DNA from: a bacterium
Lineage (GTDB): Bacteria; Patescibacteriota; Minisyncoccia; UBA6257; WO2-44-18
Direction: 5' to 3'
DNA: 64,000 nucleotides
Assembly (NCBI GenBank): GCA_030689595.1
Contig: JAUYHP010000008.1
Span: 32,589 to 96,588 of the forward strand
The position numbers and the translations under genes are program-made. The notes under the pieces were generated by a model. That model did not search any database. It saw nothing but the letters and a program-made list of their open reading frames with translations, and had not been told where the DNA came from. The number at the start of each line of letters is the position of its first letter. The first letter of the stretch is position 1. Positions 5,132 through 60,369 of this stretch are shown in pieces.

Positions 5132-5743
5132 ATGACCAGAAACATAAATTTACCAAAGATGCTTTTAACAGTATTTGTTATTGCATTTGTGATTTTGGCC
5201 ATAAGCCCAGCTGATTACGGCGTGTGGTGGCTAGAGAATTTACCAGTTATATTAGTTTTGCCGATACTTATTTGGGGCTATTACAAACATCGATTGTCGA
5301 ATCTGGCCTATCTTTCAATCTTTGTTTACGCCACGTTATGCATATTCGCCGCGCACTATACTTTCAGTGAAGCTCCGCTAGGTGAATGGCTAAGTCAATT
5401 ATTTGGTTGGGAGCGCAACCACTATGATCGACTCGTTCATTTATCATACGGACTCTTGATGACGCCGGTGATTTGGGAAATTTTTAGAAACTATTTACCG
5501 AAAAAAAATTGGGCGAAAGCAATTTTTGTTTTTAGCATAGTAGTAGCTTTGGGGTCGCTATATGAATTAGCTGAATTGGCCGCGGCTGTTATTTTTAATC
5601 CCGAGCTCGGCTTAGATTTCGTGGGTGCACAAGGAGACGTTTGGGACGCGCAAAAAGATATGGCGTTGCAGACAGCTGGATCTATTATGAGCCTGATGTT
5701 GCTTGGAGTATTTAAGGCGAGGCGACTTGTAAAAGCGAGTTAG
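5132..5743 (+). CDS. Integral membrane protein (DUF2238/YjdF-like)
   Basis: Multiple hydrophobic helices. The HYTFSE...ERNHYDRLVHL pattern resembles the YjdF family. Confidence 0.4.
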   Translation: MTRNINLPKMLLTVFVIAFVILAISPADYGVWWLENLPVILVLPILIWGYYKHRLSNLAYLSIFVYATLCIFAAHYTFSEAPLGEWLSQLFGWERNHYDRLVHLSYGLLMTPVIWEIFRNYLPKKNWAKAIFVFSIVVALGSLYELAELAAAVIFNPELGLDFVGAQGDVWDAQKDMALQTAGSIMSLMLLGVFKARRLVKAS

Positions 5744-5784
5744 GGGCGCTGGCGCGCGTTTATTTATCATGCTAGTCTCACAAT

Positions 5785-6024
5785 ATGGAGAAGATGCCAT
5801 TGGAAAATTCGTCGGAAAAAATAGAAAAACAGATCGAGGCACTATTAGAAGCCTTAAGTGGTTTTGGACAAGAGACGCACGATGAGTTAACTCCAGAAAT
5901 GCAAGAAGATTGGTATTTCATTGAAGCCGAAGCTAGATCTGGCCAAGACAGGGCCCAGGCTGAAGGCAGGTTGCGGGAATTTGTTGAATACTTGCAGGAG
6001 CATTTTCCAGCACAAACAGATTAA
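5785..6024 (+). CDS. Small acidic hypothetical protein
   Basis: 79-aa ORF with plausible spacing, rich in Glu and Asp. Confidence 0.3.
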   Translation: MEKMPLENSSEKIEKQIEALLEALSGFGQETHDELTPEMQEDWYFIEAEARSGQDRAQAEGRLREFVEYLQEHFPAQTD

Positions 6025-36226: not shown

Positions 36227-36841
36227 ATGCAAAAAGACTATCAACCAGAAAAATTAAAAATTGATAAAGATCTTCCAGGCTTCAGCCTTAAGGGCATCAA
36301 GGAGCATTTTAAACTTTATGAGGGTTATGTCAAAAAAACTAACGAGATCCAAAAGAAAATTGAAGATGCCGATAAGTCAGAGGCCAATGCTGTTTACAGT
36401 TATATCGGCGAATTGAAGCGCGAAGAAGTCTTTGCCATAAACGGCATTAAACTTCATGAAATTTATTTTGATCACCTTGGCGGCGATGGAAAGCCAAGTG
36501 GTGAGCTAGTAAAAATGATCGAAAGAGATTTTGGCTCGGTTGATAAATGGCGCGAAGATATGATCGCCACCGGCTTAAGTGCTCGTGGTTGGGCTATAAT
36601 GGCCTACGACCTTAAAGATAGCCAGCTCCATAATTATGGAGCTGATGCCCAAAACATTGGCGCAGTCTGGGGCGCTATTCCTATTATAGCCCTGGATGTT
36701 TATGAGCACGCTTATTTTATGGATTATGGAACCGATCGAAAATCTTATGTTAATGCCTTTTTTGAAAATCTGGATTGGAGCGTCGCCAATGCCATGATGA
36801 CTAAATATGTCACGCCATGGGAAAAGACAAAGAACCAGTAA
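36227..36841 (+). CDS. sodA: Fe/Mn superoxide dismutase
   Basis: LDVYEHAYFMDYG (the D-x-W/Y-E-H-A-Y motif) and the conserved His ligands (EHF..., LHEIYF). The start is taken at MQKDY; the longer upstream frame overlaps the tRNA. Confidence 0.8.
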   Translation: MQKDYQPEKLKIDKDLPGFSLKGIKEHFKLYEGYVKKTNEIQKKIEDADKSEANAVYSYIGELKREEVFAINGIKLHEIYFDHLGGDGKPSGELVKMIERDFGSVDKWREDMIATGLSARGWAIMAYDLKDSQLHNYGADAQNIGAVWGAIPIIALDVYEHAYFMDYGTDRKSYVNAFFENLDWSVANAMMTKYVTPWEKTKNQ

Positions 36842-38070
36842 AAAATTCGGAGCGAGAGGATGTTGAAACCGAAAAGGATCTACTACAGGGCGGTGAAGCT
36901 TCGATAATAAAATTGATAGATGCCTTAATCGAAAGCGCCTATACGGCTCGCGCTTCTGATATTCATATCGATCCGGAACAGGACCAAGTCCGAGTGCGCT
37001 TCAGAGTTGACGGAACCTTGCATGACACTTTTGTCTTTTCAAAAGACTCCCATTCAGAAATCATCACTCGCCTGAAAGTACTTTCTGGCTTACGCACTGA
37101 CGAACATCAAATGGCCCAAGATGGACGTTTTAAAATTTCCGTCAGTGACGGTCTTTTTGTAGATGTACGCCTTTCCATAGCTCCAACCTATTACGGGGAA
37201 AATGCCGTGATGAGATTATTGGCACAAAAATCTGAAACAGAATTTACTTTAGAGGCCTTGGCATTTTCCGAAAAAAATCAAAAAATAATTCAAAAATCAA
37301 TTAAAAAACCTTATGGCATGATTTTGGCCACTGGGCCCACCGGCTCTGGCAAAACCACCACTCTGTACACGATCATAAAAATGTTGAACAAGCCAGAAAC
37401 TTCCATCATCACCATAGAAGATCCCATTGAATATTCGGTTGATGGCGTTGAGCAAATTCAAGTTAACACACAAACAGGGCTGACCTTCGTCAGCGGTCTA
37501 CGCTCGATCTTGCGACAAGATCCTAATATCATCATGGTCGGTGAAATACGCGATCAAGAAACAGCTGGCATTGCCATTAATGCCGCTTTGACAGGTCATC
37601 TTTTGCTTTCAACCCTACACACCAACGACGCCGCCACAACATTGCCGCGGTTGGTAGATATGAAGGTAGAGCCGTTTTTAATTGCATCCACCGTAAATAT
37701 TGCCATGGGCCAGAGATTGCTACGCCGTGTTTGCCAAGATTGTAAAATCGAAAAAAAGATTACAGCCACCGACATTAAGAGTTTGTCCACAGCGTTACGC
37801 CCAGGAGCAATAAATGAAGGTGCTATTTTCTATGCTGGCGAAGGTTGTGATGTGTGTGACCACACCGGCTACAAAGGACGCATTGGAGTACATGAGGTTA
37901 TGGAGGTTACGGATGCTATCAGAGAAGCTATAATGAAAAGAGCCGACGCCGCCATGATTCAAGAATTAGCAATCAAAGAAGGCATGGTGCCTATGCTTGA
38001 AGACGCGCTTCAAAAAGCATTGGCCGGGCTAACCACGATCGAAGAAATTTTACGCATTATACATGAATAA
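36817..38070 (+). CDS. pilB: Type IV pilus/T2SS assembly ATPase (GspE/PilB family), minimal form
   Basis: Walker A ATGPTGSGKTTTLY, Asp/His boxes and a C-terminal tetracysteine (CQDC...CDVC). Only about 417 aa. Confidence 0.85.
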   Translation: MGKDKEPVKNSEREDVETEKDLLQGGEASIIKLIDALIESAYTARASDIHIDPEQDQVRVRFRVDGTLHDTFVFSKDSHSEIITRLKVLSGLRTDEHQMAQDGRFKISVSDGLFVDVRLSIAPTYYGENAVMRLLAQKSETEFTLEALAFSEKNQKIIQKSIKKPYGMILATGPTGSGKTTTLYTIIKMLNKPETSIITIEDPIEYSVDGVEQIQVNTQTGLTFVSGLRSILRQDPNIIMVGEIRDQETAGIAINAALTGHLLLSTLHTNDAATTLPRLVDMKVEPFLIASTVNIAMGQRLLRRVCQDCKIEKKITATDIKSLSTALRPGAINEGAIFYAGEGCDVCDHTGYKGRIGVHEVMEVTDAIREAIMKRADAAMIQELAIKEGMVPMLEDALQKALAGLTTIEEILRIIHE

Positions 38071-39133
38071 TTTTTTAAAGAACTTATCTCTTAGCGTTTC
38101 TTTGCAAGAGAAAATCATTTTTGCTAAACATCTGGCTATCATGATAAAAGCTGGCATGCCACTCTTGGATGCAATAAACATGTTGCAACAACAAACTAGG
38201 TCGCGCTCCATGTCTAAAATTTTAGAATCAGTAGTCAAAGATGTCAGCAACGGCCAATTTCTTTCAAAAAGTCTAGAAAAATATCAATCGGTTTTCGGCG
38301 ATTTGTTTATTCAACTTATCAAAGTTGGCGAAACCGGTGGCATACTGTCAGAAAATTTAGTTTATTTGGCTGACGAGCTTAAAAAGAAAGCCGAACTTCG
38401 TCGCAAGGTGGTGGGCGCATTAATTTATCCATCAATTATTTTATTAGCCACCCTGGGTATAGCCGGTTTTTTGACCATATATATATTCCCCAAAATAATC
38501 CCGGTATTTTCTAGTCTTAAGGCGGAATTACCGATCACCACCAAAATATTGATAAGCATCAGCAATCTGTTAACCCAACATGGTGGGCTCGCTATGCTGG
38601 CCTTGTTAATAATAGTAATTGTCATATGGTTTTTGCTCAAAGTTCGTACCATTCGTTTTTATTGGCATCGAGTATTGCTGTCGCTACCAATTGTTGGCAA
38701 AATAGCTCGGAGTGTTAATATGGCCAACTTTTCCAGAGCCTTAGGATTGCTGTTAAAAAGTGATGTAAAAATCGTTAACGCTATTAATATCACTGCTGGC
38801 ACATTGTCTAATCTGGTTTATCGCGATGAACTAGCTAAATCAAGCTCAAATATAGAGAAGGGTGAATATATATCCAAATATTTAATGACTCGCGGAGACC
38901 TTTTCCCAATTATGTTTGCTAACATGATTGCGGTAGGGGAGCGCACAGGAAATTTAAGTGAAACGCTGTTATATTTGGCCGAATTTTATGAAAACAGCGT
39001 GGACGATCTCACTAAAAACTTATCAAACGTTTTAGAGCCAGTGCTAATGGTTGCTATGGGTGTCATCGTCGGATTCGTCGCGATTTCTATCATTACCCCG
39101 ATCTATGGTGTCACCCAAACCCTTAGCCGCTAA
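38063..39133 (+). CDS. pilC: Type IV pilus platform protein (GspF/PilC family)
   Basis: Two T2SSF repeats and three TM segments. Confidence 0.85.
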   Translation: MNNFLKNLSLSVSLQEKIIFAKHLAIMIKAGMPLLDAINMLQQQTRSRSMSKILESVVKDVSNGQFLSKSLEKYQSVFGDLFIQLIKVGETGGILSENLVYLADELKKKAELRRKVVGALIYPSIILLATLGIAGFLTIYIFPKIIPVFSSLKAELPITTKILISISNLLTQHGGLAMLALLIIVIVIWFLLKVRTIRFYWHRVLLSLPIVGKIARSVNMANFSRALGLLLKSDVKIVNAINITAGTLSNLVYRDELAKSSSNIEKGEYISKYLMTRGDLFPIMFANMIAVGERTGNLSETLLYLAEFYENSVDDLTKNLSNVLEPVLMVAMGVIVGFVAISIITPIYGVTQTLSR

Positions 39134-39564: not shown

Positions 39565-40971
39565 ATGAGTAGCAAATCCGGGCAGTCGATAATTGAATTA
39601 TTAATAGCCATCGGTGTTTTTGTGTTGATGGCCTCGGCGGCTTTGTTGTTATTCTTTGGCGGGCAATCGCTTTCGATCGATAGCAGCAACGCACAACAGG
39701 CGCTAGATTATGCGTCCGAGGGTCAAGAAGCGGTACGTTCAATTGCTCACCGTGATTGGGACGGATTGGTTAACGGCGAATATGGATTAATTTATCAAAA
39801 TGGCCAATGGGAATTCTCAGGCTCGTCTAACATCAAAGAGCTCTTTACGCGCACCATCTTTATAGATGACGTTGACCCAAACACTAAGCGCGCCAGCACT
39901 ACTGTGACTTGGCAGCTTAGTCCAGCGCACATACAAAACATTGAATTAGTACAATATCTAACTCAATGGGAAAATCCATTGGTGGGTGGTTGTAAAACCG
40001 ACCCAATTTCTGGGGACTGGTATAATCCGGTAGTCTTGGGCTCAATCAATCTAGGCCCAGGCAATGAAGGGACCGATGTAGTCGCCGACCTGCCCTATGT
40101 ATATATGAGCGCCGAAGCTTCGGCGGCGAATAAGCCAGATGTTTTTGTTGTTGACGTTAGTGACGTATCTAATCCTCAAGTTATACGATCGGTTGATATA
40201 GGAGCCAGTGGAGTTAATTCCATTTATCTTAATGGAGATTTTTTGTACGCCGCTTCCGGTAATAATGGTCGTGAGTTTATTGTTTTTGATGTTAGTAATC
40301 CACCCAACATGATTGATGTCGCCAGCATTAATCTATCTGGGCAAGAAGATGCTATTTCTATACGAGGCGTGGAAGATACTGTATATGTTGGCAGAGTAAG
40401 TGGCTCTGATAAAGAGTTGGCAGTTATTGATGTTTCGGATCCGCTTAACCCATCTGTGGCAACCTCATTTGAAATCGGCGGCGATGTTAATAGCTTGATG
40501 ACTACCAGCCATAAACTGTATGTTACGACCGATATTCCCGATAAAGACGTGTGGATTTATGATATTGAAAATCCCAATGCGCCCGTATTGTTGGATATAT
40601 ATGATTTGCCCGTGGGTGGCGAAATTATTGGCATTGGCTTGCGATTGCCGGGCGATATACTAGCTGGCGGCACTAATGAGCTTTGGGTTTTGGGGGCGAC
40701 CACCACTGACCAAATTTATGTTCGTAGTTCGCTCGAAATCGGTGGCGCTAGCAATGACGTGGCTTGCGTGGCCGACAACTTGGCGTTTTTGGCCACCAAT
40801 AATAGCACTAAGGAGTTTTTAATCGTTGATATTTCTAATCCTGATGATATTAAAGAGGTGGCTTCGTTTAATTTCCCGCAGATCGGCACCGGTATGGATT
40901 TTGCCGAAAATAAAGTGTTTTTATCGGTACGCAGTAATGACGCCTTGAGAATTATCGGCCCGGGGCCATAG
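39565..40971 (+). CDS. Prepilin N-terminus fused to a large LVIVD-repeat beta-propeller domain (candidate pilus-associated adhesin)
   Basis: N-terminal SGQSIIELLIAIGVFVLMA prepilin-like helix. After it come repeated blocks (VVDVSDVSNPQV, IVFDVSNPPNM, AVIDVSDPLNPSV, WIYDIENPNAPV, LIVDISNPDDI) that match the LVIVD repeat. Confidence 0.6.
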   Translation: MSSKSGQSIIELLIAIGVFVLMASAALLLFFGGQSLSIDSSNAQQALDYASEGQEAVRSIAHRDWDGLVNGEYGLIYQNGQWEFSGSSNIKELFTRTIFIDDVDPNTKRASTTVTWQLSPAHIQNIELVQYLTQWENPLVGGCKTDPISGDWYNPVVLGSINLGPGNEGTDVVADLPYVYMSAEASAANKPDVFVVDVSDVSNPQVIRSVDIGASGVNSIYLNGDFLYAASGNNGREFIVFDVSNPPNMIDVASINLSGQEDAISIRGVEDTVYVGRVSGSDKELAVIDVSDPLNPSVATSFEIGGDVNSLMTTSHKLYVTTDIPDKDVWIYDIENPNAPVLLDIYDLPVGGEIIGIGLRLPGDILAGGTNELWVLGATTTDQIYVRSSLEIGGASNDVACVADNLAFLATNNSTKEFLIVDISNPDDIKEVASFNFPQIGTGMDFAENKVFLSVRSNDALRIIGPGP

Positions 40972-51210: not shown

Positions 51211-52482
51211 ATGAATAAATTCTTACAAATTTTTAAAATTCCTGATCTGCGCAAAAAGATATTTATAGTTGTCTTTTTGCTTTTGGTTTTCAGATTATTG
51301 GCCGCCATACCAACTCCGGGCATCGATGCAGATAGATTAAAGGGCTTGCTAGACTCCAGTCAATTGTTGGGATTTTTTAATATATTTTCCGGTGGCTCCT
51401 TGGCAAATCTTTCCATAATGATGTTGGGTGTATCGCCCTATATCACCGCTACCATCATCATGCAGCTATTGACCATGATTTTCCCGAAATTAAAGACTCT
51501 TTATTATGAAGAGGGGAATGCCGGCCGAGCTAAATTCAATAGATATTCGCGCTATATAACGGTGCCCTTGGCTGCCCTGCAGGGTTATGGCTTTCTAAAT
51601 CTTCTGATCAGCCAACAAGTTTTACCGCCTCTACCCGGGCTGGATATGTTGCGTAACGTTTTAGTAATAACCGCCGGCTCCATGATTCTAATGTGGCTTG
51701 GCGAACTTATGAGTGAACAAAAAATCGGCAATGGCATTTCTTTAATCATCTTTGCCGGTATCGTCAGCGGCCTACCTCAAATAGTGAGATCATTAGTTGT
51801 GTCCTATGACCCAACTAATGTGCCGGTGTATGTTGCCTTCGCTATATTGAGCGTCATCATTACTGCTTGCGTGGTATTCATAAACGAGGGTGAACGAAAA
51901 ATACCAGTTTCTTATGCCAAAAGAATCAGAGGTAGTCGCATGTACGGCGGATCGTCTAGCTACTTGCCGCTGAAAGTAAACCAAGCCGGCGTTATCCCAA
52001 TCATCTTCGCTATTTCAATTTTGTTATTCCCACAGTTTTTTGCCCAAATTGCCTCAGCCGTATCGCCTGGTTTTGGAGCCACTTTGAATGATTGGGTCAA
52101 TAGAATATTTAGCAACCAAGTTATTTATGGTCTGATATATTTCGTATTAGTTGTTGTCTTCACTTATTTTTATACGGCCGTTACCTTCGACCCCAAAGAA
52201 ATAGCCAAAAACCTCCAGCGCAGTGGGGGGTTCGTCCCGGGCATTAGGCCGGGTGATCCAACTGGAGAATTTTTACAAAAAGTTATTTATCGTATCACTT
52301 TGTTCGGCGCCCTCTTCTTGGGTGTAGTTGCGGTTTTGCCTAACATTACACAAATATTAACCGGCATACAAACTTTATCCATCGGTGGTACAGCCTTGCT
52401 GATTGTTATTGCTGTGGCCCTAGAAGTTATGCGCCAAATTGACTCTCAATTGGTTATTCGAGAATACGAGGGGATACAGTAA
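51211..52482 (+). CDS. secY: Preprotein translocase SecY
   Basis: Ten TM helices and the GGSLANLSIMMLGVSPYITATII and QAGVIPIIFA blocks. Confidence 0.95.
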   Translation: MNKFLQIFKIPDLRKKIFIVVFLLLVFRLLAAIPTPGIDADRLKGLLDSSQLLGFFNIFSGGSLANLSIMMLGVSPYITATIIMQLLTMIFPKLKTLYYEEGNAGRAKFNRYSRYITVPLAALQGYGFLNLLISQQVLPPLPGLDMLRNVLVITAGSMILMWLGELMSEQKIGNGISLIIFAGIVSGLPQIVRSLVVSYDPTNVPVYVAFAILSVIITACVVFINEGERKIPVSYAKRIRGSRMYGGSSSYLPLKVNQAGVIPIIFAISILLFPQFFAQIASAVSPGFGATLNDWVNRIFSNQVIYGLIYFVLVVVFTYFYTAVTFDPKEIAKNLQRSGGFVPGIRPGDPTGEFLQKVIYRITLFGALFLGVVAVLPNITQILTGIQTLSIGGTALLIVIAVALEVMRQIDSQLVIREYEGIQ

Positions 52483-52496
52483 AAATTCTAAACAAA

Positions 52497-52530
52497 GTCC
52501 TCTGGCGCCCCGCCTCGGAGGACTTTTTTA
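52497..52530 (+). terminator. Rho-independent terminator after secY, the first of four GC-rich hairpins
   Basis: AGTCCTC...GAGGACT stem then TTTTTT. Further hairpins lie at about 52600-52625, 52668-52692 and 52710-52740. Confidence 0.6.
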
Positions 52531-52754
52531 CTAGACGTCTTAATTTTAATTACGACTAATATAATATCGCCGGTGGGCGATTCTTATCTAGCAAAAAAGC
52601 CAGGTTCCTCCGATGACTATCGGAGGGGTTTTTACTACGTTGTCCAAATTCTATTTGGACGCATAATAATCGCCCCGCGGTGGCGGGGCACATATCGGAG
52701 CAAAACCCCTGGTGTCCCGCTTCGGCGGGACGGTTTTATGTTACAATTATAATT

Positions 52755-53147
52755 ATGGAACCAGTAAAAAGTTTTGAATTTAGCCACGAATCCCTAGAAA
52801 AGGACATGGAGCGTCTGGCTGGCGAGGTTCAAGAAAGGGCAGCAGCCGAGTCGCCAACAGCTCACAAGGAAGCTATTAAATCCACCGTAGGAGAGCAGAT
52901 AAAGAAAATGGCACCCGTCGCTCCAGACCCCAACGAGCACCAATCTTCGACCGTGCCAAATTATCTCCAAGCAGCCGACAACTCGACTAAGTTACAAGTT
53001 GAACAGCTGATAGAATTAGCTTGGCACAAGGGGTTGCCTGCGGCGATTAAGGAGGCTAAAAAGGCTGGGCCTTTATATGTGGACGCCCTACACGACGCTT
53101 TAACCGATAAACTTTACGACGAATTCAAAAGACGTAAGTTGTTATGA
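52755..53147 (+). CDS. Hypothetical soluble protein, first gene of a three-gene operon
   Basis: About 130 aa from MEPVKSF. Its stop overlaps the next start (ATGA). Confidence 0.45.
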   Translation: MEPVKSFEFSHESLEKDMERLAGEVQERAAAESPTAHKEAIKSTVGEQIKKMAPVAPDPNEHQSSTVPNYLQAADNSTKLQVEQLIELAWHKGLPAAIKEAKKAGPLYVDALHDALTDKLYDEFKRRKLL

Positions 53148-55477
53148 AAATAGCGCTAGTAGTTATTTTTGCTGTAATATTTGTGGCAATCGTAATAGCT
53201 ATTATTTTGTATGCTAAGAAATCATCGTTGCGCAATCTTTTAAAAAAATCTTTAAATCTTAAGCTGCTATCTATCAGGCTGCCTCAGCCCGTTGAGAAAG
53301 AGCAACAAAAATTTCAAGATGAAATTAATACTTCTGGTCAATTAATAAGCATTTTAGCCGGGCTTAAGCAGCCATTTACCTTTGAAGTTGCTAAACCAAA
53401 CAACAGCGAAGAAATCCATTTTTACATTGCAGTCCCACAAGATTCTGTAGAGTTTACCTCTAGGCAAATACAAGGCCTCTGGAGCGATGCTCAGATAGAC
53501 CATATAGATGATTATACGATTTTTAATACGACTGGCGCCGCCGGAGTGGCCTATCTTAAGCAAAAGAGTCACAGCGCTATTCCAATTAGAACTTTTGCCG
53601 AGGCTGAAAACGATACCTTTTTACCAATCATCAGCAACCTAACTAAAGTTGAGGGGATAGGTGAGGGGGCCGCCATCCAAATAGTTGTTAAGCCAGCGCC
53701 AGATTCGATAAAAAACAATGTTGATAAAGTTATTAATAAATTGCGCCAAGGAATGTCTCTTAAAGACGCACTAGCTGGCAAAGTCATCAAAACCAACAAA
53801 GACAAAAACGCCCCAGTCCAACCAAGGGTTGTTGATGAAGAGTCGGTTAAAATATTGAGTAGCAAGATAGCTAAGCCGATATTTTCAGTTAATGTTCGCC
53901 TGGCAACTTCAGCGTCCAGCCCAGAAAAAGCAGATGCACTATTAAATGGTTTAGCGGGTTCTTATAATCAATTTTCAGCCCCAGGCAGAAATGAATTTAA
54001 AATAGTCAGCCCCAAAGATAGCAGAGAATTAATATATCAATTCGTTTTCAGGCAACATGATAATCGCCAGAATATGATATTGGGCGCCGATGAATTGGCG
54101 AGTATTTTTCATTTACCAACCAGTGCTACCAGAATTCCTAAAATTCATTGGCTGAAATCTAAAGAAGCCGCACCGCCGCCGAATTTACCAGATGCAGGCG
54201 TAACGATAGGAAAAAGCACTTTTAGAAATGATGACAAATTGGTGAAAATCACCGACGATGATCGTCGACGACATTTATATGTTATCGGCCAAACTGGCAC
54301 TGGTAAATCTAGTCTATTAATTAATATGGCCGTTGACGACATCCGCCAAGGCAAGGGCGTCGCCATAATAGACCCTCACGGCGACTTAATCGACGCGGTA
54401 TCTGGCCTTATTCCAGCTGAAAGACAAAAAGATGTTATCGTTTTCGACCCTGGCGATATCTCTAAACCATTGGGCCTTAACATGCTTGAATATGACGTTA
54501 ATCGTCCCGAAGAAAAGACCTTTATTGTCAACGAAATGCAGAGCATTTTTAATAAGTTATTTACGGCCGAAACTATGGGGCCTATGTTCGAACAATATAT
54601 GCGCAATGCCTTGTTGCTATTGATGGAAGATATGCCACACTCTCCTTCGACGCTAACGGAAGTGCCTCGTATTTTTACTGATGCAGATTTCCGCCGAGAA
54701 AAAACTAGTCGCGCCCTCAACCCGACAGTCGTAGATTTTTGGGAAAAAGAGGCCGCGAAAGCAGGCGGCGAAGCATCTCTAGCCAACATCACCCCCTATA
54801 TAACTTCTAAATTTAACAATTTCTTGGCTAACGATTATGTGCGGCCGATTATTGGCCAAGTGCGGTCGTCGTTTAATTTCCGCAAGGTGATGGATGATGG
54901 CAAAATATTGTTGGTCAATCTTTCCAAGGGGCGCATCGGTGATATAAATGCTGGACTTTTAGGTATGATTGTCGTCGGTAAATTGTTGATGGCGGCTTTA
55001 TCGCGAGTAGATCTAGCCCAAGAACAGCGTCGCGATTTTAATTTATACATCGATGAGTTCCAAAACTTCACTACCGATTCTATCGCCACGATTTTATCAG
55101 AAGCTCGTAAGTATAAATTAAATCTTGTCATTGCTCACCAATTTATTGGTCAGCTAACTGAAAAAATTCGTGATGCTGTTTTTGGCAATGTGGGCTCGAT
55201 GGCTGTGTTTAGGGTCGGCGCTGACGACGCTGAGTTTCTAGCTAAACAATTTGATCCAGTATTTTCTAAAACCGACCTCATCAACATTGACAACTTCAAC
55301 GCCTACCTTAAATTATTGATTGCCGGTCAAACATCCAGGCCATTTAATATGATAACTATTCCACCGGAGCAGGGTGACGAAAAAATTAAAGAAGCTTTAA
55401 AAGAATATTCACGCAACACCTACGGCCGTGATAGGGGAGAGGTAGAAGCCGAAATACTTAAGAGATTAAGGGCCTAA
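53144..55477 (+). CDS. Membrane-anchored TraG/VirD4/TrwB-like (type IV coupling protein / FtsK-HerA superfamily) ATPase
   Basis: N-terminal TM helix and a roughly 400-aa unique middle region. Walker A YVIGQTGTGKSSLL is followed by IIDPHGD. The C-terminal YIDEFQNF...ARKYKLNLVIAHQFIGQL...GNVGSMAVFRVGADDAEFL follows the TraD/TraG Walker B-to-C-terminus pattern. Confidence 0.65.
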   Translation: MKIALVVIFAVIFVAIVIAIILYAKKSSLRNLLKKSLNLKLLSIRLPQPVEKEQQKFQDEINTSGQLISILAGLKQPFTFEVAKPNNSEEIHFYIAVPQDSVEFTSRQIQGLWSDAQIDHIDDYTIFNTTGAAGVAYLKQKSHSAIPIRTFAEAENDTFLPIISNLTKVEGIGEGAAIQIVVKPAPDSIKNNVDKVINKLRQGMSLKDALAGKVIKTNKDKNAPVQPRVVDEESVKILSSKIAKPIFSVNVRLATSASSPEKADALLNGLAGSYNQFSAPGRNEFKIVSPKDSRELIYQFVFRQHDNRQNMILGADELASIFHLPTSATRIPKIHWLKSKEAAPPPNLPDAGVTIGKSTFRNDDKLVKITDDDRRRHLYVIGQTGTGKSSLLINMAVDDIRQGKGVAIIDPHGDLIDAVSGLIPAERQKDVIVFDPGDISKPLGLNMLEYDVNRPEEKTFIVNEMQSIFNKLFTAETMGPMFEQYMRNALLLLMEDMPHSPSTLTEVPRIFTDADFRREKTSRALNPTVVDFWEKEAAKAGGEASLANITPYITSKFNNFLANDYVRPIIGQVRSSFNFRKVMDDGKILLVNLSKGRIGDINAGLLGMIVVGKLLMAALSRVDLAQEQRRDFNLYIDEFQNFTTDSIATILSEARKYKLNLVIAHQFIGQLTEKIRDAVFGNVGSMAVFRVGADDAEFLAKQFDPVFSKTDLINIDNFNAYLKLLIAGQTSRPFNMITIPPEQGDEKIKEALKEYSRNTYGRDRGEVEAEILKRLRA

Positions 55478-55536
55478 TATTGACGCCTTATATAAAATTT
55501 GCTAATCTGTTAGAAGCTCATTTCAAGGAGGTTATT

Positions 55537-55791
55537 ATGAGCCGAGAAAAGCTACGCAGAGCATTGTGCGGCCGTAAGATTATTTTTGTTAATGTTAATG
55601 ACGACGGGAATGATTTTATGACCTTAACCCTTGATGACGGCTCTAAAATTGTTTTCACTCATGGGGCAGATCCTGGTCAGCCAGTTTGGACCAAGATTGT
55701 TAAACGTAACCTCGATGAGCATGATGATTATGTTTGTACTGATGAGTTGTGGTCTACCAGCGGTGGCAGTGGGCGCGTAGGGATGCTTTGA
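55537..55791 (+). CDS. Small hypothetical protein, third gene of the operon
   Basis: AAGGAGG RBS before the ATG at 55537; 84 aa. Confidence 0.4.
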   Translation: MSREKLRRALCGRKIIFVNVNDDGNDFMTLTLDDGSKIVFTHGADPGQPVWTKIVKRNLDEHDDYVCTDELWSTSGGSGRVGML

Positions 55792-55835
55792 GAGGACAGC
55801 TCTGACCCGTGTTTCCGGTTCGGGATTTTAAAATA

Positions 55836-55873
55836 AAATTAATGGCGTGACTTAGGTCACGCCATTTTTATTA
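55836..55873. terminator. Bidirectional terminator
   Basis: AAAATAAAATTA-ATGGCGTGAC-TTAG-GTCACGCCAT-TTTTATTA. Confidence 0.7.
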
Positions 55874-55876
55874 AGA

Positions 55877-56659
55877 TTATTTTAAATAGCCAATTTTCTT
55901 CAGCCAATATTCATTGTCCCACTCCCACAATTTCTTGGCCGCCAAAAAAGCTTCAAAATCTTCTTTCCAATAGGGATCTTCTTTTATAGCTGTTACGCCA
56001 GTTAATGGGCCCCATTCATGTTGATCTTCTGGACAAACCTTTAGCCCACGAATTGAGGGATATGGTTTGCGAATTTTTTCTCGCCCGCCCTTAGGGCGCA
56101 AGGTTGATTTACATTTTGGACAAGTTTTAATCTGATCAACTCTCAATATCCATCTTGTTTGTGGATCAACTACCGAAGGATCTTTAGTCAGAGCATCCAT
56201 ATAAGCCGCTGTTTGCAAATTATAATCTCGATAAAAATCCATCGAAGTTTTAATATCCATAACGCCAAATTTACCGCCAATCAGAGCCATAGCATCAATC
56301 GTGCCGGCATAGCTATGATCTAGATTCATAATTCGCTTTTCAATTGATTGCGGATCAACTTGAATATTATTCCGATCAATAAACTCTATACACGAATTAA
56401 CTGCCGGCGCTATGCTTTCATCAATATCTCTCTGTTTTCCCAAAAGAATATCTTGAACGGTTTCGTGTACTAGCGTGCCTTCTTCGGCCGATTTTTTTGT
56501 TTGCGCTTCTGCCGCCGCAAAACTAGTAGCGGAAGCATAATATCTATATAAAGCCGGTTTAGATTTTACGCCAATGATCTTAGTAACACGCGGATACCAA
56601 AAACCGTTGATATCATAACCGCATTGTTCTTTAAATTGTTCGGGCGTGGAGTAGTACAT
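55877..56659 (-). CDS. PD-(D/E)xK nuclease-family protein (Cas4/RecB-like fold) with a Cys-rich C-terminus
   Basis: HETVQD..., then D-x13-MDIKT (the D...D/E-x-K arrangement: GTIDAMALIGGKFGVMDIKTS). CPKCK...C...C may be a zinc ribbon. Confidence 0.5.
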   Translation of the reverse strand: MYYSTPEQFKEQCGYDINGFWYPRVTKIIGVKSKPALYRYYASATSFAAAEAQTKKSAEEGTLVHETVQDILLGKQRDIDESIAPAVNSCIEFIDRNNIQVDPQSIEKRIMNLDHSYAGTIDAMALIGGKFGVMDIKTSMDFYRDYNLQTAAYMDALTKDPSVVDPQTRWILRVDQIKTCPKCKSTLRPKGGREKIRKPYPSIRGLKVCPEDQHEWGPLTGVTAIKEDPYWKEDFEAFLAAKKLWEWDNEYWLKKIGYLK

Positions 56660-56842
56660 TAAAAAATTATTAAGAAATTAATCTATTTAGCCATTAAGTA
56701 ATAAATAAATTGTAGTACGTAGCAGTCGTTAAGTACAGGATGTTGTTGTGCGTGATGCTAAAATTTTAGAAGACGCTAACACGGCCTTAAAGGATGTGTC
56801 TATTAAAGGAGTCGTTTATTATATACTCCGCGGACACAGATT

Positions 56843-56903
56843 AGCGCTGCTTTCACATGTGAAAGCAGCGCTGCTTGACGTATTGATGGGTTATTGTTAT
56901 CAT
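56843..56903 (+). promoter_or_regulatory. 30-bp perfect palindrome abutting a promoter-like -35/-10 pair
   Basis: AGCGCTGCTTTCACATGTGAAAGCAGCGCT (56843-56872), immediately followed by TTGACG, a 17-bp spacer, and TATCAT. Confidence 0.45.
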
Positions 56904-56947
56904 ATTCAGAAGTTCTTTGACGTTCACCTGATAAGGAGCATAGAGCG

Positions 56948-57106
56948 ATGAACAGAAAAACGCTGGACATGATTACCATTCTCGTTGCCTCTCTTGGCGT
57001 GTGTGTGGCACTTTTCATTATTGCCACCATGCCCGGCAATGAGACTGTAGGACTGTGTCTTATTGGGGGAGCCCTAACCGCGGCACTTCTCACGATACTG
57101 ATTTAG
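56948..57106 (+). CDS. Unannotated 52-aa two-TM hydrophobic peptide (toxin- or holin-like small protein)
   Basis: AGGAGC RBS and the ATG at 56948. The sequence is MNRKTLDMITILVASLGVCVALFIIATMPGNETVGLCLIGGALTAALLTILI. It falls below the 60-aa cutoff of the ORF track. Confidence 0.4.
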   Translation: MNRKTLDMITILVASLGVCVALFIIATMPGNETVGLCLIGGALTAALLTILI

Positions 57107-57436
57107 ACGCGCAACACCAGAAAAAAGTTTTAAGGCGGCTGGCCATCTTCCCGATGGCAGCTAATGTCTAGTATTTAGGTGATTTTGACGATATTCAGAA
57201 GGCCAAGCTGGTTGCCGCTAAAAAAGGCACTGGTTGTACCGGAAGCGCTATTTTTGCCGCAGGTGTATATGACCATGCGGGTAAACAGATCCATTTCTTT
57301 CGCCGTAGACCGTCTACAATTGCTAAGGATTAAGCTTGATAAATATAGCCGCCATCTTTATTAATAAAGTTGGCGGTTTTTTCTTTTTACGCATTTATCA
57401 ACAGGGTAGGGCTACCAAATATTTGCTCGATATAAT

Positions 57437-57468
57437 AAAGTGAGTGTAAGGGATATTATACTCACTTT
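57437..57468. other. 12-6-12 inverted repeat, candidate tyrosine-recombinase core site
   Basis: AAGTGAGTGTAA-GGGATA-TTATACTCACTT, with 11 of 12 positions matching between arms, 75 bp upstream of the recombinase gene. Confidence 0.4.
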
Positions 57469-57542
57469 GGTATATGTGAGAAAATAATGGTAAAATTGGT
57501 AAAAAGCACTCCCCTAACACTATTTTGTAGAAATTATCAATT

Positions 57543-58514
57543 ATGACAAAAGCTGACAGCGATAATAAAAAAGTTACAATTCTTCCTCATCTAGATGACT
57601 TTTTATTACACCTACAGAGTAATAACTATTCACCCAAAACCGTATATAATTACGAACGCGACCTAATAGTATTTGATGGCTTCCTACAGGATGACCTAGG
57701 CCTAAAAGACTTCCAAGATGCCTCAAAACAGGCTCTAGAACGGTATAAGGCGTATCTGATGTCTACTGACCGTAAAACAGCCCGTAAAACGCAAAATAAG
57801 GCCAATTTAGGGGCCTATTCACGCAACCGACACCTATCAGCCCTCAGGAGCTATCTTAAGTACTTAATTGACGGGGACTATAAGACCCCGATCGTCCCAG
57901 AGAACATAAAGCTAATCAAAACTGACAAAAAGATAGCCAAAGTGGCCGAGCTGCAAGACTTAATCAAATTGATTGAATCCCCCACCAAATTTGAAAAAAA
58001 TCCAATCATAGCTAAGCGCAATCGCGCCATGTTAGAAGTTTTATTTGCTACCGGTTTACGTATTTCCGAATTAGTTAATCTCAAAAAAAATCAGATCGAT
58101 AGGGAAGGCAAGATTTTTGTTTTGGGCAAAGGCAAAAAAGAAAGATTTGTTTATTTGACCCCTAGAGCCATAAAATATTTAAAAATATATTTAACCGAAC
58201 GCAACGATGACTCCCCTCACCTATTCATTTCTTATCGCGGCAAAAGAGCGCCAACGCAAGATCATCATGTGTCGCCAAATTATTTACAAGAAAAAATAAA
58301 AAAATACCGAGAGATTCTTGGCATCAATGTGCCAACTAGCGCCCACTCACTCCGCCACGGCTTTGCCACCTATCTGGCCGAAAAAGGCGCCAGCCCTGCC
58401 GCCATTCAAATACTTTTGGGTCACGAGTCTTTAGACACTACCACTCGCTATGTCCACGCCTCGCATCGCTTCGCCAAAAAAACTCACCAGAAATTTCATC
58501 CACTGAAAGATTAA
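57543..58514 (+). CDS. Tyrosine site-specific recombinase (XerC/XerD/integrase family)
   Basis: C-terminal HSLRHGFAT...LLGHESLDTTTRYVH (R-H-R-Y catalytic set), and N-terminal SAM-like core-binding domain. Confidence 0.85.
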   Translation: MTKADSDNKKVTILPHLDDFLLHLQSNNYSPKTVYNYERDLIVFDGFLQDDLGLKDFQDASKQALERYKAYLMSTDRKTARKTQNKANLGAYSRNRHLSALRSYLKYLIDGDYKTPIVPENIKLIKTDKKIAKVAELQDLIKLIESPTKFEKNPIIAKRNRAMLEVLFATGLRISELVNLKKNQIDREGKIFVLGKGKKERFVYLTPRAIKYLKIYLTERNDDSPHLFISYRGKRAPTQDHHVSPNYLQEKIKKYREILGINVPTSAHSLRHGFATYLAEKGASPAAIQILLGHESLDTTTRYVHASHRFAKKTHQKFHPLKD

Positions 58515-58550
58515 AATAAAAATCCCATAGTAGTGTGAATAATGGTATAT

Positions 58551-58580
58551 AAAAAAAAACCCGAACCACTTGGTTCGGGG
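58551..58580 (-). terminator. Rho-independent terminator for the minus-strand gdh-ychF-adk-map transcript
   Basis: On the minus strand: CCCGAACCA-AG-TGGTTCGGG then TTTTTTTTT. Confidence 0.65.
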
Positions 58581-58690
58581 TTGATGCTACTTGGCCGAGG
58601 TTGTCATCAGAAACAAGCTCAACCAGTGCCGTTTCTGGTGCCCCTTCTGGAGCACGACGACACCTGCCCACTGCTCCACCGCCTTTCCTG

Positions 58691-58795
58691 TCTGCCAGGC
58701 AAGGCCGAGGAACTGAACGACATCCCCGCCAGCTTTCTGCCAGGCAAGGCCGAGGCCCTGCACGGCATCCGCACTAGCACTCTGCCAGGCCATGA
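58691..58795. repeat. GC-rich 45-bp tandem repeat (about 2.3 copies)
   Basis: CTGCCAGGCAAGGCCGAGG recurs at 58691 and 58736, and a partial copy at 58781. Local GC is about 60%, against a roughly 42% background. Confidence 0.6.
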
Positions 58796-58901
58796 CTACC
58801 TCCAATACAACGGTGGACAGTGAAGTGATTAAACTTTGTTTAGGTACTGGGGCTAGTATATCATAAATATGTGAGGTTTGTCAAGGGGGACAAGTATTAA
58901 C

Positions 58902-59660
58902 TCACTTAGTTAATATCTCGACACCATTTTTAGTTATGGCTACTGTATGTTCAAAATGAGCCGATAAGCTACCATCGGCAGTAGCATAACTGTCGTCGTC
59001 TAGTTGGATAACTTCAGAGGTGCCAATGGCTACCATGGGTTCTATGGCAATCACCAAGCCAGGCTCAATTTTAAAACCACTCCCCTTTTGGCCCTCATTG
59101 AAAACTGATGGCTCCTCGTGCAGTTCTTTGCCAATTCCATGACCAGTTAACCCCTCCGATATATGCAATCCTTGAGCTTTAACATAACTACTTATGGCAT
59201 AGCCAATATCGCCCAACTTATTACCTACTTTTGCGGCGGCCACTCCCCTGTTCAATGCTTCGCGGGTAGTGTCAATTAATTTTTGTGCCTCAATAGAGAT
59301 TTCACCTATCGGTACAGTCCAGGCGGCATCGGCATTATAGCCATCGTAATTAACGCCAAAATCTAATTTCAAGATATCACCTGGCTTCAATAAATGCTCT
59401 CGCGGCACACCATGAACAATAACCTCATTGACTGAAGCGCAGATAGAACAGGGGTACGGCTTGATGGCGCCATAAGGCTGATAATTTAAGAATGACGGTT
59501 TGGCGCCGGCTTTTTCTATAAGATTTCTGGCGATAGTATCTAGATATTTTAATTTCACACCCGGCTTAGCCAATTCCAATATCTGCTTGGCGGTTGCGGC
59601 CAGAATCCTCCCGGCCTTTCTCATAATTTCAATCTCTTCTGGGGTTTTAATATGAATCAT
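58902..59660 (-). CDS. map: Methionine aminopeptidase type I
   Basis: Metal ligands are in the expected context (D...D...H...E...E; HGIGKELHEEP). Confidence 0.9.
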   Translation of the reverse strand: MIHIKTPEEIEIMRKAGRILAATAKQILELAKPGVKLKYLDTIARNLIEKAGAKPSFLNYQPYGAIKPYPCSICASVNEVIVHGVPREHLLKPGDILKLDFGVNYDGYNADAAWTVPIGEISIEAQKLIDTTREALNRGVAAAKVGNKLGDIGYAISSYVKAQGLHISEGLTGHGIGKELHEEPSVFNEGQKGSGFKIEPGLVIAIEPMVAIGTSEVIQLDDDSYATADGSLSAHFEHTVAITKNGVEILTK

Positions 59661-59679
59661 ATATTTTTATAATCCCACT

Positions 59680-60369
59680 CTAAAGTTTTAGTTTCTTGGC
59701 AACAGAAGCATGCACCTTAAACGGCAATGGCATGCCATTAACTTTTGTGATTTTGTAGCCACGCTTTTTTAATCCAGCCAAAATAGGAAAAGTGCGCTCT
59801 TGATACTCTTTTATCCTTGTCTTGAAAACTGATGGATTGTCCACTGTACGCTTGATCAACTTACCACCACATAACGGACAAGTTTTGTGTTTATGTAATG
59901 CATCGCTATATAAAACTGCCGTAGCACACACCGAACAAACCATCCGATATTTATTTCTTTTGATAGAGGCGTTGGGGTCAATATCTAAGAAAACTGGATA
60001 AATGTTCTGCTTGCCATAAGCTTTCTCCAAAACGCGCACTAGGCCAGTATGTTTATTATCGCCAAAGGCCTCAAACATTGTTCGTGGAGAACCACTAAAT
60101 ACAATATTAAATCCGGCCCTAGCTATCTCCTTAGCTTTGTTGGCCGTAACTTTTAATACAAAACTTGGCGTCATTAAAGCGCCGGAGTCAAATAGCTTGC
60201 CCTCACGTTGAATAATTCTATTTTTTTTATTACTCGGGTCGTGGACTAACTGCTCCAAATAGCGGCCAGTATCAAAATGGGTAAAGCCTTTTCGCCCAGT
60301 CAAAAGATTGGCTTGAGTGCCTTTCCCTGCCCCCGGTGGGCCATAAAATATAACTGCTATCTTCGCCAT
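59680..60369 (-). CDS. adk: Adenylate kinase with Zn-lid
   Basis: GPPGAGKGTQA P-loop; lid CSVCATA...CPLCGG. Confidence 0.9.
   Translation of the reverse strand: MAKIAVIFYGPPGAGKGTQANLLTGRKGFTHFDTGRYLEQLVHDPSNKKNRIIQREGKLFDSGALMTPSFVLKVTANKAKEIARAGFNIVFSGSPRTMFEAFGDNKHTGLVRVLEKAYGKQNIYPVFLDIDPNASIKRNKYRMVCSVCATAVLYSDALHKHKTCPLCGGKLIKRTVDNPSVFKTRIKEYQERTFPILAGLKKRGYKITKVNGMPLPFKVHASVAKKLKL

Follow-up and report, generated by a model that had tools for sequence, protein, structure and literature searches.

Genes and transcription signals at the locus

In the window analysed here, a stretch of 64,000 nucleotides, the locus comprises three open reading frames (ORFs) on the plus strand, which is the strand of every stranded feature given below: 52755-53147 (130 aa), 53144-55477 (777 aa) and 55480-55791 (103 aa if translation starts at a TTG). 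The first two genes share 4 nt (ATGA). A GTG at 52680 was considered as the start of the 130-aa gene and rejected in favour of the ATG at 52755. Immediately 3' of secY there is a GC-rich hairpin followed by a U-run (52494..52529), seen both in the RNA fold of 52483-52760 and by direct reading of the sequence; this is likely the terminator of the spc ribosomal-protein operon, setting that operon apart from the two-gene module. The structured leader has no Rfam match and is not kept in L004, a syntenic relative that is 76% identical. At the other end, a bidirectional intrinsic terminator (55841..55866), with an 11-bp stem and T-runs on both strands, closes the ATPase operon and a convergent PD-(D/E)XK gene. 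The locus is adjoined by this Cas4-like exonuclease and by a Xer-like recombinase, the latter lying 2 kb downstream of the ATPase gene both in the window and in L004, and its GC content is in no way unusual.

The original prediction described three translationally coupled genes. This holds for the first two, which overlap and form a conserved unit, and fails for the third, which is neither coupled nor conserved. NCBI annotates it as an 84-aa protein (Q8O87_01405; 55537..55791) that starts at the ATG at 55537, 59 nt past the ATPase stop, and it has its own ribosome-binding site, AAGGAGG. Conservation was negative by tblastn, DNA alignment and full database search: there is no counterpart in L004, and among 5.8 billion proteins the only match is to itself. 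This lineage-specific ORFan is probably co-transcribed with the ATPase gene and lies outside the conserved module.

A VirB4-like domain in front of a T4CP-type motor

From N- to C-terminus, the 777-aa protein (NCBI MDP2695890.1; 53144..55477) comprises a transmembrane (TM) helix, a domain resembling the N-terminal domain of VirB4 and a P-loop domain of T4CP type, into which an all-alpha segment is inserted. The single N-terminal TM helix, as originally proposed, spans residues 3-21 (53150..53206), with a Kyte-Doolittle hydropathy of 3.64, within an AF2 helix of residues 2-37; from the K/R-rich run that follows, and by the positive-inside rule, the rest of the protein is predicted to be cytoplasmic. 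What had been described as a unique middle domain of 400 aa is a domain of about 300 aa (residues 38-345; 53255..54178), which corresponds to Pfam PF26449 (DUF8128), is built of two ferredoxin-like alpha/beta units and folds like the N-terminal domain of VirB4/TrwK. The DUF8128 name derives from precomputed annotations, in which PF26449 is assigned to all 120 homologues listed (59-76% identity); our local scans of NCBIfam and of a Pfam set without this model returned nothing for residues 1-365.

The P-loop (RecA-like) domain occupies residues ~350-740 (54191..55363), and is supported by the PF02534 match, by Foldseek and by a profile search of PDB sequences. The motifs previously quoted for it are all present, and are invariant or nearly so across 41 homologues: Walker A, GQTGTGKS (residues 382-389; 54287..54310), is invariant, as are D637 and E638 of Walker B, NLYIDE (residues 633-638; 55040..55057), and the same near-invariance extends to DPHGD (410-414), DEFQNF (637-642), AHQ (664-666) and FRVG..D (689-695). 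Between Walker A and Walker B, the AF2 secondary structure places a set of helices (residues 455-561; 54506..54826) that forms an all-alpha insertion, nearly invariant throughout the family. In the AF2 model it takes the same position as the all-alpha domain of TrwB, with no sequence match between the two.

Family assignment of the motor

HMM searches bear out the assignment to TraG/VirD4-like ATPases, with three Pfam models above their cut-offs: PF02534 (34.1 bits versus 20.1, over residues 366-674), PF10412 (23.7 versus 20.5) and PF01935 (28 versus 23.2). TrwB was the best PDB sequence match of the family profile (4e-7), which also found DotL, and Foldseek returned TrwB (TM 0.60, 18% identity), DotL, Cagbeta and HerA. 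On these sequence and fold comparisons, membership of the T4CP/VirD4-TraG/HerA-FtsK superfamily is supported. The NCBIfam T4CP equivalog and subfamily models scored far below their cut-offs (43.8 versus 366); no characterised coupling protein is therefore its equivalog.

The comparison with the T4CPs (VirD4/TrwB/TraG/TraD; PF02534, PF10412, PF12696) reveals a common plan for the motor, a P-loop domain with helices inserted between the two Walker motifs; both also have an N-terminal membrane anchor, though of different make. The differences are these: (i) T4CPs typically have two TM helices, whereas the parcubacterial ATPase has one, and none in a clade of 24 loci described below; (ii) the VirB4-like domain of ~300 aa separates the anchor from the motor; (iii) relaxase and Mpf genes are not among its scanned or recurrent neighbours, and the gene belongs to the chromosomal core and evolves at a housekeeping rate. 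With VirB4/TrwK the protein shares the type of N-terminal domain, but its motor is closer to that of T4CPs: no VirB4 model (CagE_TrbE_VirB, AAA_10, P-loop_TraG) matched at E <= 0.1, TrwK was not found by the family profile among PDB sequences, and the gene does not lie beside VirB3, VirB6, VirB8 or TrsD. From the HerA/FtsK translocases and the type VII proteins EccE/EccC it differs in having no HAS-barrel, NurA partner, FtsK gamma domain, multi-TM domain or tandem ATPase repeats. Neither Pfam nor NCBIfam gave FtsK_SpoIIIE, gamma-domain or ComFA-like signatures; the DUF87 match was confined to residues 375-452, and the NCBIfam HerA model scored 17.8 versus 970. HerA-type partners (NurA, Sir2 or similar) are not adjacent; the PD-(D/E)XK nuclease was considered as a NurA-like partner and discarded, being near the ATPase in just 3 closely related loci. 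Literature searches on DUF8128, on CPR DUF87 proteins and on FtsK in Parcubacteria/Patescibacteria returned nothing usable.

The small partner protein

The 130-aa protein (52755..53147), the conserved 5' neighbour of the ATPase, is soluble, has no TM segment and, judged from its sequence, appears to be helix-forming. No match was found in Pfam, NCBIfam, PDB, PADLOC or PHROG; in the family alignment a C-terminal motif, DALHDxLTDKLY..FK.R.L, is invariant. The partner gene lies directly 5' of the ATPase gene in 36 loci, and in a further arrangement, found in 24 loci, the partner is fused to the N-terminus of the ATPase and takes the place of the TM helix (profile-profile E 2e-12). This fusion argues for a physical complex of the two proteins, and the replacement of the helix in one large clade indicates that membrane insertion is dispensable. 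ABY1-type loci have a different protein upstream of the ATPase, for which no homology to the partner was detected (hhalign probability <1%).

VirB3-VirB4 fusions also occur, and the fusion of the partner to the ATPase N-terminus mirrors them. By analogy with VirB3 (for VirB4) and CagZ (for Cagbeta), the partner, a small protein encoded beside an ATPase, probably binds it; however, the partner has no detectable sequence similarity to either, and VirB3, unlike the partner, has a TM segment.

Distribution, inheritance and gene neighbourhood

At least 597 species-level genomes, from Parcubacteria and related lineages, encode a full-length relative, and the family diverges no faster and no slower than SecY, Map and YchF. 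Members of the family include TSC89087, OGF75847 and OHA84385, the last (OHA84385.1) an example of the soluble fused form. Across 83 related loci the neighbours are housekeeping genes and otherwise variable; in two clades that are far apart, the ATPase gene is found where the ribosomal spc operon ends, and in ABY1-type loci it neighbours DnaX. The family is inherited vertically and, with a conservation of housekeeping grade, belongs to the core genes of Parcubacteria (Paceibacteria and ABY1-type lineages). The gene pair recurs in relatives and the locus does not lie in a prophage, so that neither of the findings named beforehand as refuting the original prediction was made.

No relaxase, VirB4 or Mpf gene was found among ten of the larger ORFs of the window and the ORFs flanking the locus, the scan being confined to larger ORFs elsewhere, and no relaxase, Mpf or T4SS gene is recurrent in the 83 loci. 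The earlier view that this is not a canonical conjugation system is therefore upheld: the ATPase and its partner are a conserved two-gene unit of Parcubacteria that behaves like a housekeeping gene and not like part of a mobile conjugation system. The suggested link to type IV pili and DNA uptake was not supported. PilB and PilC are encoded in the window at 36817-39133, but these pil genes are 14 kb from the ATPase gene, past ribosomal-protein operons, and neither pil nor com genes recur near it in the 83 loci.

Phage homologues

The ATPase matched phrog_5156 with an E of 6e-76 over residues 75-774. PHROG 5156 comprises remote homologues from the "DNA translocation operons" of Bacillus and Geobacillus phages (0305phi8-36 orf201, SPO1 gp27.4, phage G gp156, TP-84), and is the sole other group found with the same N-terminal domain followed by a T4CP-like motor, the homology being collinear and full-length, N-terminal domain included. 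However, the phage proteins are just 20-23% identical to the parcubacterial ATPase, they have no TM helix, and their neighbours are instead small membrane proteins, a VirB4-like or VirB6-like gene, or a Replic_Relax gene: phage G gp156 adjoins a separate VirB4-like protein, gp155, and the SPO1-like phage homologue adjoins a relaxase, the position of a T4CP. They are also accessory, and under laboratory conditions 0305phi8-36 can do without its operon (PMC3357382), whereas in Parcubacteria the gene is part of the core and its partner is soluble and of another kind. Paralogues restricted to the C-terminal domain occur on IMG/VR contigs beside resolvase, PLD nuclease and SNF2 helicase genes.

Discussion

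We propose, with a probability of roughly 45%, that the locus encodes a domesticated coupling-type ATPase and its soluble partner, which would probably serve the chromosomal T4SS of Patescibacteria. The ATPase, a membrane-tethered and presumably hexameric member of the VirD4/TrwB family, would sit on the cytoplasmic face of the membrane, where the VirB4-like domain and the small partner may dock it to a membrane platform. As an adaptor or regulator, the partner would bind close to where the VirB4-like domain begins, in the position that VirB3 takes on VirB4. ATP hydrolysis in the ring would then feed a conserved substrate, putatively DNA or protein, into an envelope channel, with the nearly invariant all-alpha insertion recognising the substrate. 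The likeliest channel would be the T4SS encoded on the patescibacterial chromosome, which almost all members of the phylum have and whose own cluster contains neither coupling protein nor relaxase. Against this role stand the lack of linkage to T4SS genes in the scanned ORFs of the window and in the 83 loci, the replacement of the TM helix in the fused clade, the unrelated upstream protein of ABY1-type loci and the low scores with the NCBIfam T4CP models. A further point against it is the report that in S. epibionticum the T4SS is essential and the T4CP homologue non-essential (PMC12102498), a gene that may or may not belong to the DUF8128 family; the family is likely among the proteins that this paper labels T4CP homologues.

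A housekeeping DNA pump that works independently of a T4SS is in our judgement on the unlikely side. It would move chromosomal or incoming DNA at the membrane or septum, in an FtsK-like role in segregation or dimer resolution, or as a cytoplasmic DNA-uptake motor that may cooperate with type IV pili or competence proteins. Conservation and vertical inheritance like those of a universal housekeeping protein are consistent with such a pump, as are the positions of the gene at the end of the spc operon and beside DnaX, and the reported count of Patescibacteria genomes with T4CP homologues (2,918/3,035) exceeds that with VirB4 (2,417/3,035). The nearby Xer-type recombinase also points to a pump, as do weak NCBIfam matches to two archaeal ATPases of DNA import, CedB and CedD; but of the 83 loci L004 alone has the recombinase near the ATPase, the CedB and CedD matches are limited to the Walker A region and far below cut-off, and the FtsK, ComFA-like and pil/com evidence presented above is negative.

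We consider it unlikely that the family is a hybrid or ancestral-type ATPase, a VirB4 N-domain joined to a VirD4-type motor, which Parcubacteria have exapted along with its dedicated soluble partner for a housekeeping machine that does not depend on a T4SS and may be essential, for example the missing chromosome or DNA pump of these reduced cells. Less probable still, and by a good deal, is a divergent VirB4-type assembly ATPase, that is, a second VirB4 paralogue powering the assembly of an envelope structure and not the selection of substrates. The N-terminal domain is of the VirB4 type, but it is T4CP models and not VirB4 models that score above threshold, and the profile search of PDB sequences gives TrwB and DotL and not TrwK. 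Moreover, the phage homologues stand beside a separate VirB4-like protein (phage G) or a relaxase (SPO1-like), and each patescibacterial genome already has a bona fide VirB4.

Finally, it is scarcely credible that the genes are passengers on an integrated mobile element, a prophage or a defence island, for instance as a HerA- or mad8-type defence ATPase with a PD-(D/E)XK nuclease and a tyrosine recombinase: the PADLOC mad8 match (61.7 bits), the weak HerA matches, the adjacent exonuclease and recombinase, the phage homologues and the paralogues on IMG/VR contigs point that way, but the mad8 match covers the P-loop domain only, the surroundings contain no further mad or defence genes, the GC content is not anomalous, and ATPase, partner, nuclease and recombinase are kept in relatives at housekeeping-level identity within a family of so many species and such variable housekeeping neighbours. 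The defence reading was rejected on distribution and context, and distribution and synteny largely refute this alternative as a whole.

A large part of bacterial diversity belongs to the Patescibacteria, whose T4SS is essential, functionally unexplained and without a recognisable coupling protein in its cluster. The near-universal parcubacterial family described here could be the missing ATPase of this system, or an exapted motor with another role, and it comes with a candidate partner supported by gene fusion and with a defined docking domain. It also links a core gene of Parcubacteria to the unexplained DNA translocation operons of Bacillus phages. The presence of a VirB4-like N-domain on a VirD4-like motor bears on the kinship of the two T4SS ATPase families, and if the exapted hybrid is the true description, this protein would stand, as a living intermediate, between the two families of ATPases by which type IV secretion is defined.

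Results

Organization of the locus

The ATPase (777 aa, MDP2695890.1; 53144-55477, plus strand) lies immediately after its 130-aa partner (52755-53147, plus strand), and the two ORFs share an ATGA. The original prediction envisaged a translationally coupled operon of three genes, and three ORFs are indeed present, the first two overlapping. The third (55537-55791, plus strand; 84 aa in the NCBI annotation), however, starts at ATG 55537, 59 nt past the ATPase stop, behind its own perfect ribosome-binding site (AAGGAGG), and is an unconserved ORFan: it matched only itself among 5.8 billion proteins and has no counterpart in L004, the syntenic closest relative, where the ATPase is 76% identical. 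It sits between the ATPase and a bidirectional terminator hairpin (55841-55866, both strands) that closes the unit. The original observation is thus right for the most part, except that the conserved unit has two genes and not three. Upstream, a terminator-like hairpin (52494-52529) separates secY from the module. The 272-nt spacer between secY and the partner gene (52483-52754) is predicted to fold into successive GC-rich hairpins (MFE -105 kcal/mol, z = -7.5 versus shuffles), the last of which carries a U-run and ends ~20 nt 5' of the partner ATG; the spacer could be a leader/attenuator or a small RNA, has no Rfam match and is not conserved in L004, where it measures 122 nt.

The ATPase is a coupling protein-type motor with a VirB4-like domain

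The single transmembrane helix that had been predicted was recovered as a strongly hydrophobic N-terminal segment (residues 3-21, Kyte-Doolittle 3.64), and the basic stretch that follows it (KKSSLRNLLKK) should place the rest of the protein in the cytoplasm. All the ATPase motifs originally quoted are present, and across 41 aligned homologues they vary little or not at all: Walker A (GQTGTGKS, 382-389), DPHGD (410-414), Walker B/DEFQNF (633-642), AHQ (664-666) and FRVG..D (689-695). The assignment to TraG/VirD4-like proteins holds at family level: the Pfam models T4SS-DNA_transf (34.1 bits, residues 366-674), TrwB_AAD_bind and DUF87 all exceed their curated cut-offs, while the NCBIfam models for TraD, VirD4-like, CedB/CedD and HerA proteins remain sub-threshold. 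Among solved structures, sequence searches significantly recovered only the coupling proteins TrwB (E 4e-7, family profile) and DotL, and did not recover VirB4. The AF2 model (pLDDT 80.6) predicts a RecA-like core in which six to seven helices (residues 455-561) are inserted between the Walker A and B motifs, the place where TrwB also carries a helical insertion; with Foldseek the model matched TrwB (TM 0.60, 18% identity) as well as DotL, Cagbeta and HerA. The ATPase is a type IV coupling protein (T4CP)-type P-loop motor with intact catalytic motifs. Its NCBI label already reads 'type IV secretory system conjugative DNA transfer family protein'.

The region between the helix and the motor had been considered unique, a view that did not survive. 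PF26449 (DUF8128) is precomputed over it in every close homologue, and residues 38-345, modelled alone (pLDDT 84.6, pTM 0.84), are predicted to form two ferredoxin-like alpha/beta units resembling the N-terminal domain of VirB4. As a query, this N-domain matched 1171 clusters in a 50%-identity library; in the full-length matches listed, which are proteins of ~700-1100 aa, it lies near the N-terminus, around residue 30-110 or 145-220.

The partner is co-inherited and sometimes fused to the ATPase

The partner has no transmembrane segment and no match in any library. A member of its family, which has an invariant C-terminal motif, is found directly 5' of the ATPase in 36 loci. In 24 loci (those of the Nomura-, Taylor-, Zambryski- and Yonath-bacteria type), the ORF of the ATPase reaches 905-939 aa (OHA84385.1, for instance, is annotated at NCBI as a single 923-aa product), and the transmembrane helix is replaced by an N-terminal extension of ~150 aa. 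This extension aligned with a 38-sequence partner profile over 116 collinear columns (hhalign probability 97.7%, E 1.9e-12), and hmmsearch with the partner profile matched all 24 extensions (E 2e-15 to 5e-8), whereas reversed and 20 column-shuffled controls gave E 0.017 or worse. The ATPase has a soluble partner that is co-inherited with it and sometimes fused to it. The fusion argues strongly for a cytoplasmic-side complex of the two window proteins, and it also shows the membrane anchor to be dispensable. In ten ABY1-type loci (L042, L045, L048, L049, L052 at 5519-5995, L053, L057, L069, L070 and L080), the position directly 5' of the ATPase is occupied by a different protein of 160-190 aa, whose N-terminus is disordered and which carries the conserved motif WLKIIPGVNKFFLEQEAKIK; no homology to the window partner was detectable, which suggests partner replacement.

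The ATPase is a core chromosomal gene of Parcubacteria

A word-indexed search gave over 5,000 matches to the ATPase, the best 120 of which are full-length, 59-76% identical and all from Patescibacteria or Parcubacteria MAGs. Scanning one genome per GTDB species confirmed at least 597 relatives; the 80 listed are full-length, 42-63% identical and distributed among Wolfe-, Vogel-, Portnoy-, Moran-, Giovannoni-, Sung-, Komeili-, Niyogi-, Falkow-, Nomura-, Taylor-, Zambryski-, Staskawicz- and Yonath-bacteria, and others. The gene is conserved at core-gene level and not missing from relatives. Clustering of the neighbours in 83 loci recovered only housekeeping genes as recurrent (PMT-type glycosyltransferase, DnaX, Ndk, GtrA-like, Map, SecY, Adk and YchF), with no recurrent T4SS, relaxase or pilus gene.

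The window is ordinary chromosome of a Parcubacteria-type MAG, with flat GC content. L18, S5, L15 and SecY are encoded 5' of the module, and a PD-(D/E)XK exonuclease, a Xer-type recombinase, Map, Adk and YchF 3' of it; larger ORFs elsewhere encode BipA, DnaB, CysRS, PilB and PilC. A scan of ten of the larger ORFs and the locus flanks found neither VirB4 nor relaxase, and the original judgement that this is not a canonical conjugation system stands. The proposed link to type IV pili and DNA uptake does not: PilB (T2SSE, 36817-38070) and PilC (T2SSF, 38063-39133), with an LVIVD-repeat protein (39565-40971) next in line, show no linkage to the ATPase in other genomes.

The SecY-Adk-Map-ATPase order found in a distant clade shows that the end of the spc operon is an old location for the gene. 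At positions 51211-60369 of the window, gene order departs from the canonical secY-adk-map: the module, the nuclease and the Xer-type recombinase come after secY, and map and adk are inverted on the minus strand (58902-60369). Set against the secY-adk-map-ATPase order of the fused-partner clade, this points to an old linkage around which a local inversion took place. The nuclease gene (55877-56659, minus strand), convergent with the operon, encodes a Cas4-like exonuclease that bears a Cys cluster at its C-terminus (79 bits to phrog_298, 'exonuclease') and occurs near the ATPase also in L001 and L004 (61-80% identical) and in no other locus. Several repeats were seen nearby: a perfect 30-nt palindrome (56843-56872) between the nuclease and Xer genes, two more inverted repeats 5' of the Xer gene (57349-57376 and 57430-57475), and a 45-nt tandem direct repeat (82% identical, 58688-58777) in the Xer-map spacer.

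Discussion

We read the protein as a domesticated coupling-type ATPase, encoded by a core gene, that bears an N-domain and has a partner dedicated to it. The ATPase may assemble as a ring on the inner face of the membrane, where the N-domain and the partner would dock it onto a platform in the membrane; the VirB4 N-domain of R388 binds VirB3 and the VirB8 tails. The nearly invariant all-alpha insertion could then recognise a conserved substrate, which ATP hydrolysis would drive into a channel. The most economical choice for this channel is the chromosomal patescibacterial T4SS, to which we give a probability of some 40-50%: that system is similarly widespread, of monoderm (MPF-FATA) ancestry and devoid of a coupling protein of its own. 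Quiñonero-Coronel et al. (2025, PMC12102498) found one VirB4 in ~80% of the genomes of Patescibacteria; it clusters with TrsD, VirB3, VirB6 and VirB2-like pilins, and a relaxase is hardly ever in the cluster. They also counted 5,713 VirD4-type T4CP homologues in 2,918 genomes, only 148 of them near virB4, and raised the possibility that these homologues were exapted. In Saccharibacteria the T4SS is essential and comes without recognisable coupling or relaxase proteins (Wang et al. 2023, PMC10633639). We found no paper on the DUF8128 domain, its VirB4-like fold or the small partner, nor on the partner-ATPase fusion or a link to phage operons.

The main competing explanation, that the ATPase is a DNA pump for segregation or uptake working independently of any T4SS, would fit its housekeeping behaviour and its position by SecY, and by DnaX or Xer in some lineages; it lacks a specific signature, however, and we regard it as rather unlikely.

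The relatives of the ATPase outside Parcubacteria, found in phages, argue against its being a divergent VirB4, a reading that we consider improbable. The protein matched PHROG 5156, of unknown function (residues 75-774, E 6e-76), and tblastn recovered 46 phage records, mainly from Bacillus and Geobacillus phages, including phage G gp156, SPO1-like phages, SP-10, TP-84 and D6E. A profile built from diverse loci recovered gp156 (3e-76), SP8 (6e-51) and TP-84 (2e-33) over their full length, and the N-domain profile alone matched all three (1e-11 to 2e-7). In phage G (L096, 87009-97153), gp156 belongs to a compact T4SS-like set in which it is preceded by gp153 (TrbL/VirB6-like) and gp155 (VirB4-like; P-loop_TraG, AAA_10); in SP8 (L095), a SPO1-like phage, a small two-TM protein precedes the homologue and a Replic_Relax protein comes after it; and in TP-84 the membrane protein 5' of it is weakly TrbC/VirB2-pilin-like (E 6e-5, under cut-off). 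Such an arrangement was named the 'DNA translocation operon' in phages 0305phi8-36 and SPO1 (gp27.3/gp27.4), where a relaxase, a TM-free coupling ATPase and membrane proteins are dispensable in the laboratory (Pathria et al. 2012, PMC3357382). In these phage modules the family takes the coupling-protein position alongside a separate VirB4, which argues against naming it VirB4. The ATPase descends from, or shares ancestry with, the coupling ATPases of monoderm/phage T4SS-like modules.

That it is mobile-element or defence cargo is very improbable. Its homologues are 62% identical to the window protein in one clade and 44% in another, values that follow those of YchF (65%), SecY (52%), Map (48%) and S5 (47%) from the same loci, as expected of a vertically inherited housekeeping gene and not of plasmid cargo. 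Separately, paralogues reduced to the C-terminal domain (430-500 aa; L051:444-1934, L085:7944-9242, L086:7902-9272) have neither the transmembrane helix nor the VirB4-like domain. One lies 3.7 kb from the full-length gene in a Nomurabacteria locus; the others, on IMG/VR contigs, accompany a resolvase, a PLD nuclease and a SNF2 helicase in what resembles a mobile-element setting, and the IMG/VR matches are 33-42% identical to the window motor domain. The mobile versions are thus without the N-domain, and the core chromosomal version bears it. With a coupling-type ATPase and its dedicated partner, the locus offers concrete, testable handles on the unexplained T4SS of Patescibacteria and on how VirB4 and VirD4 are related.
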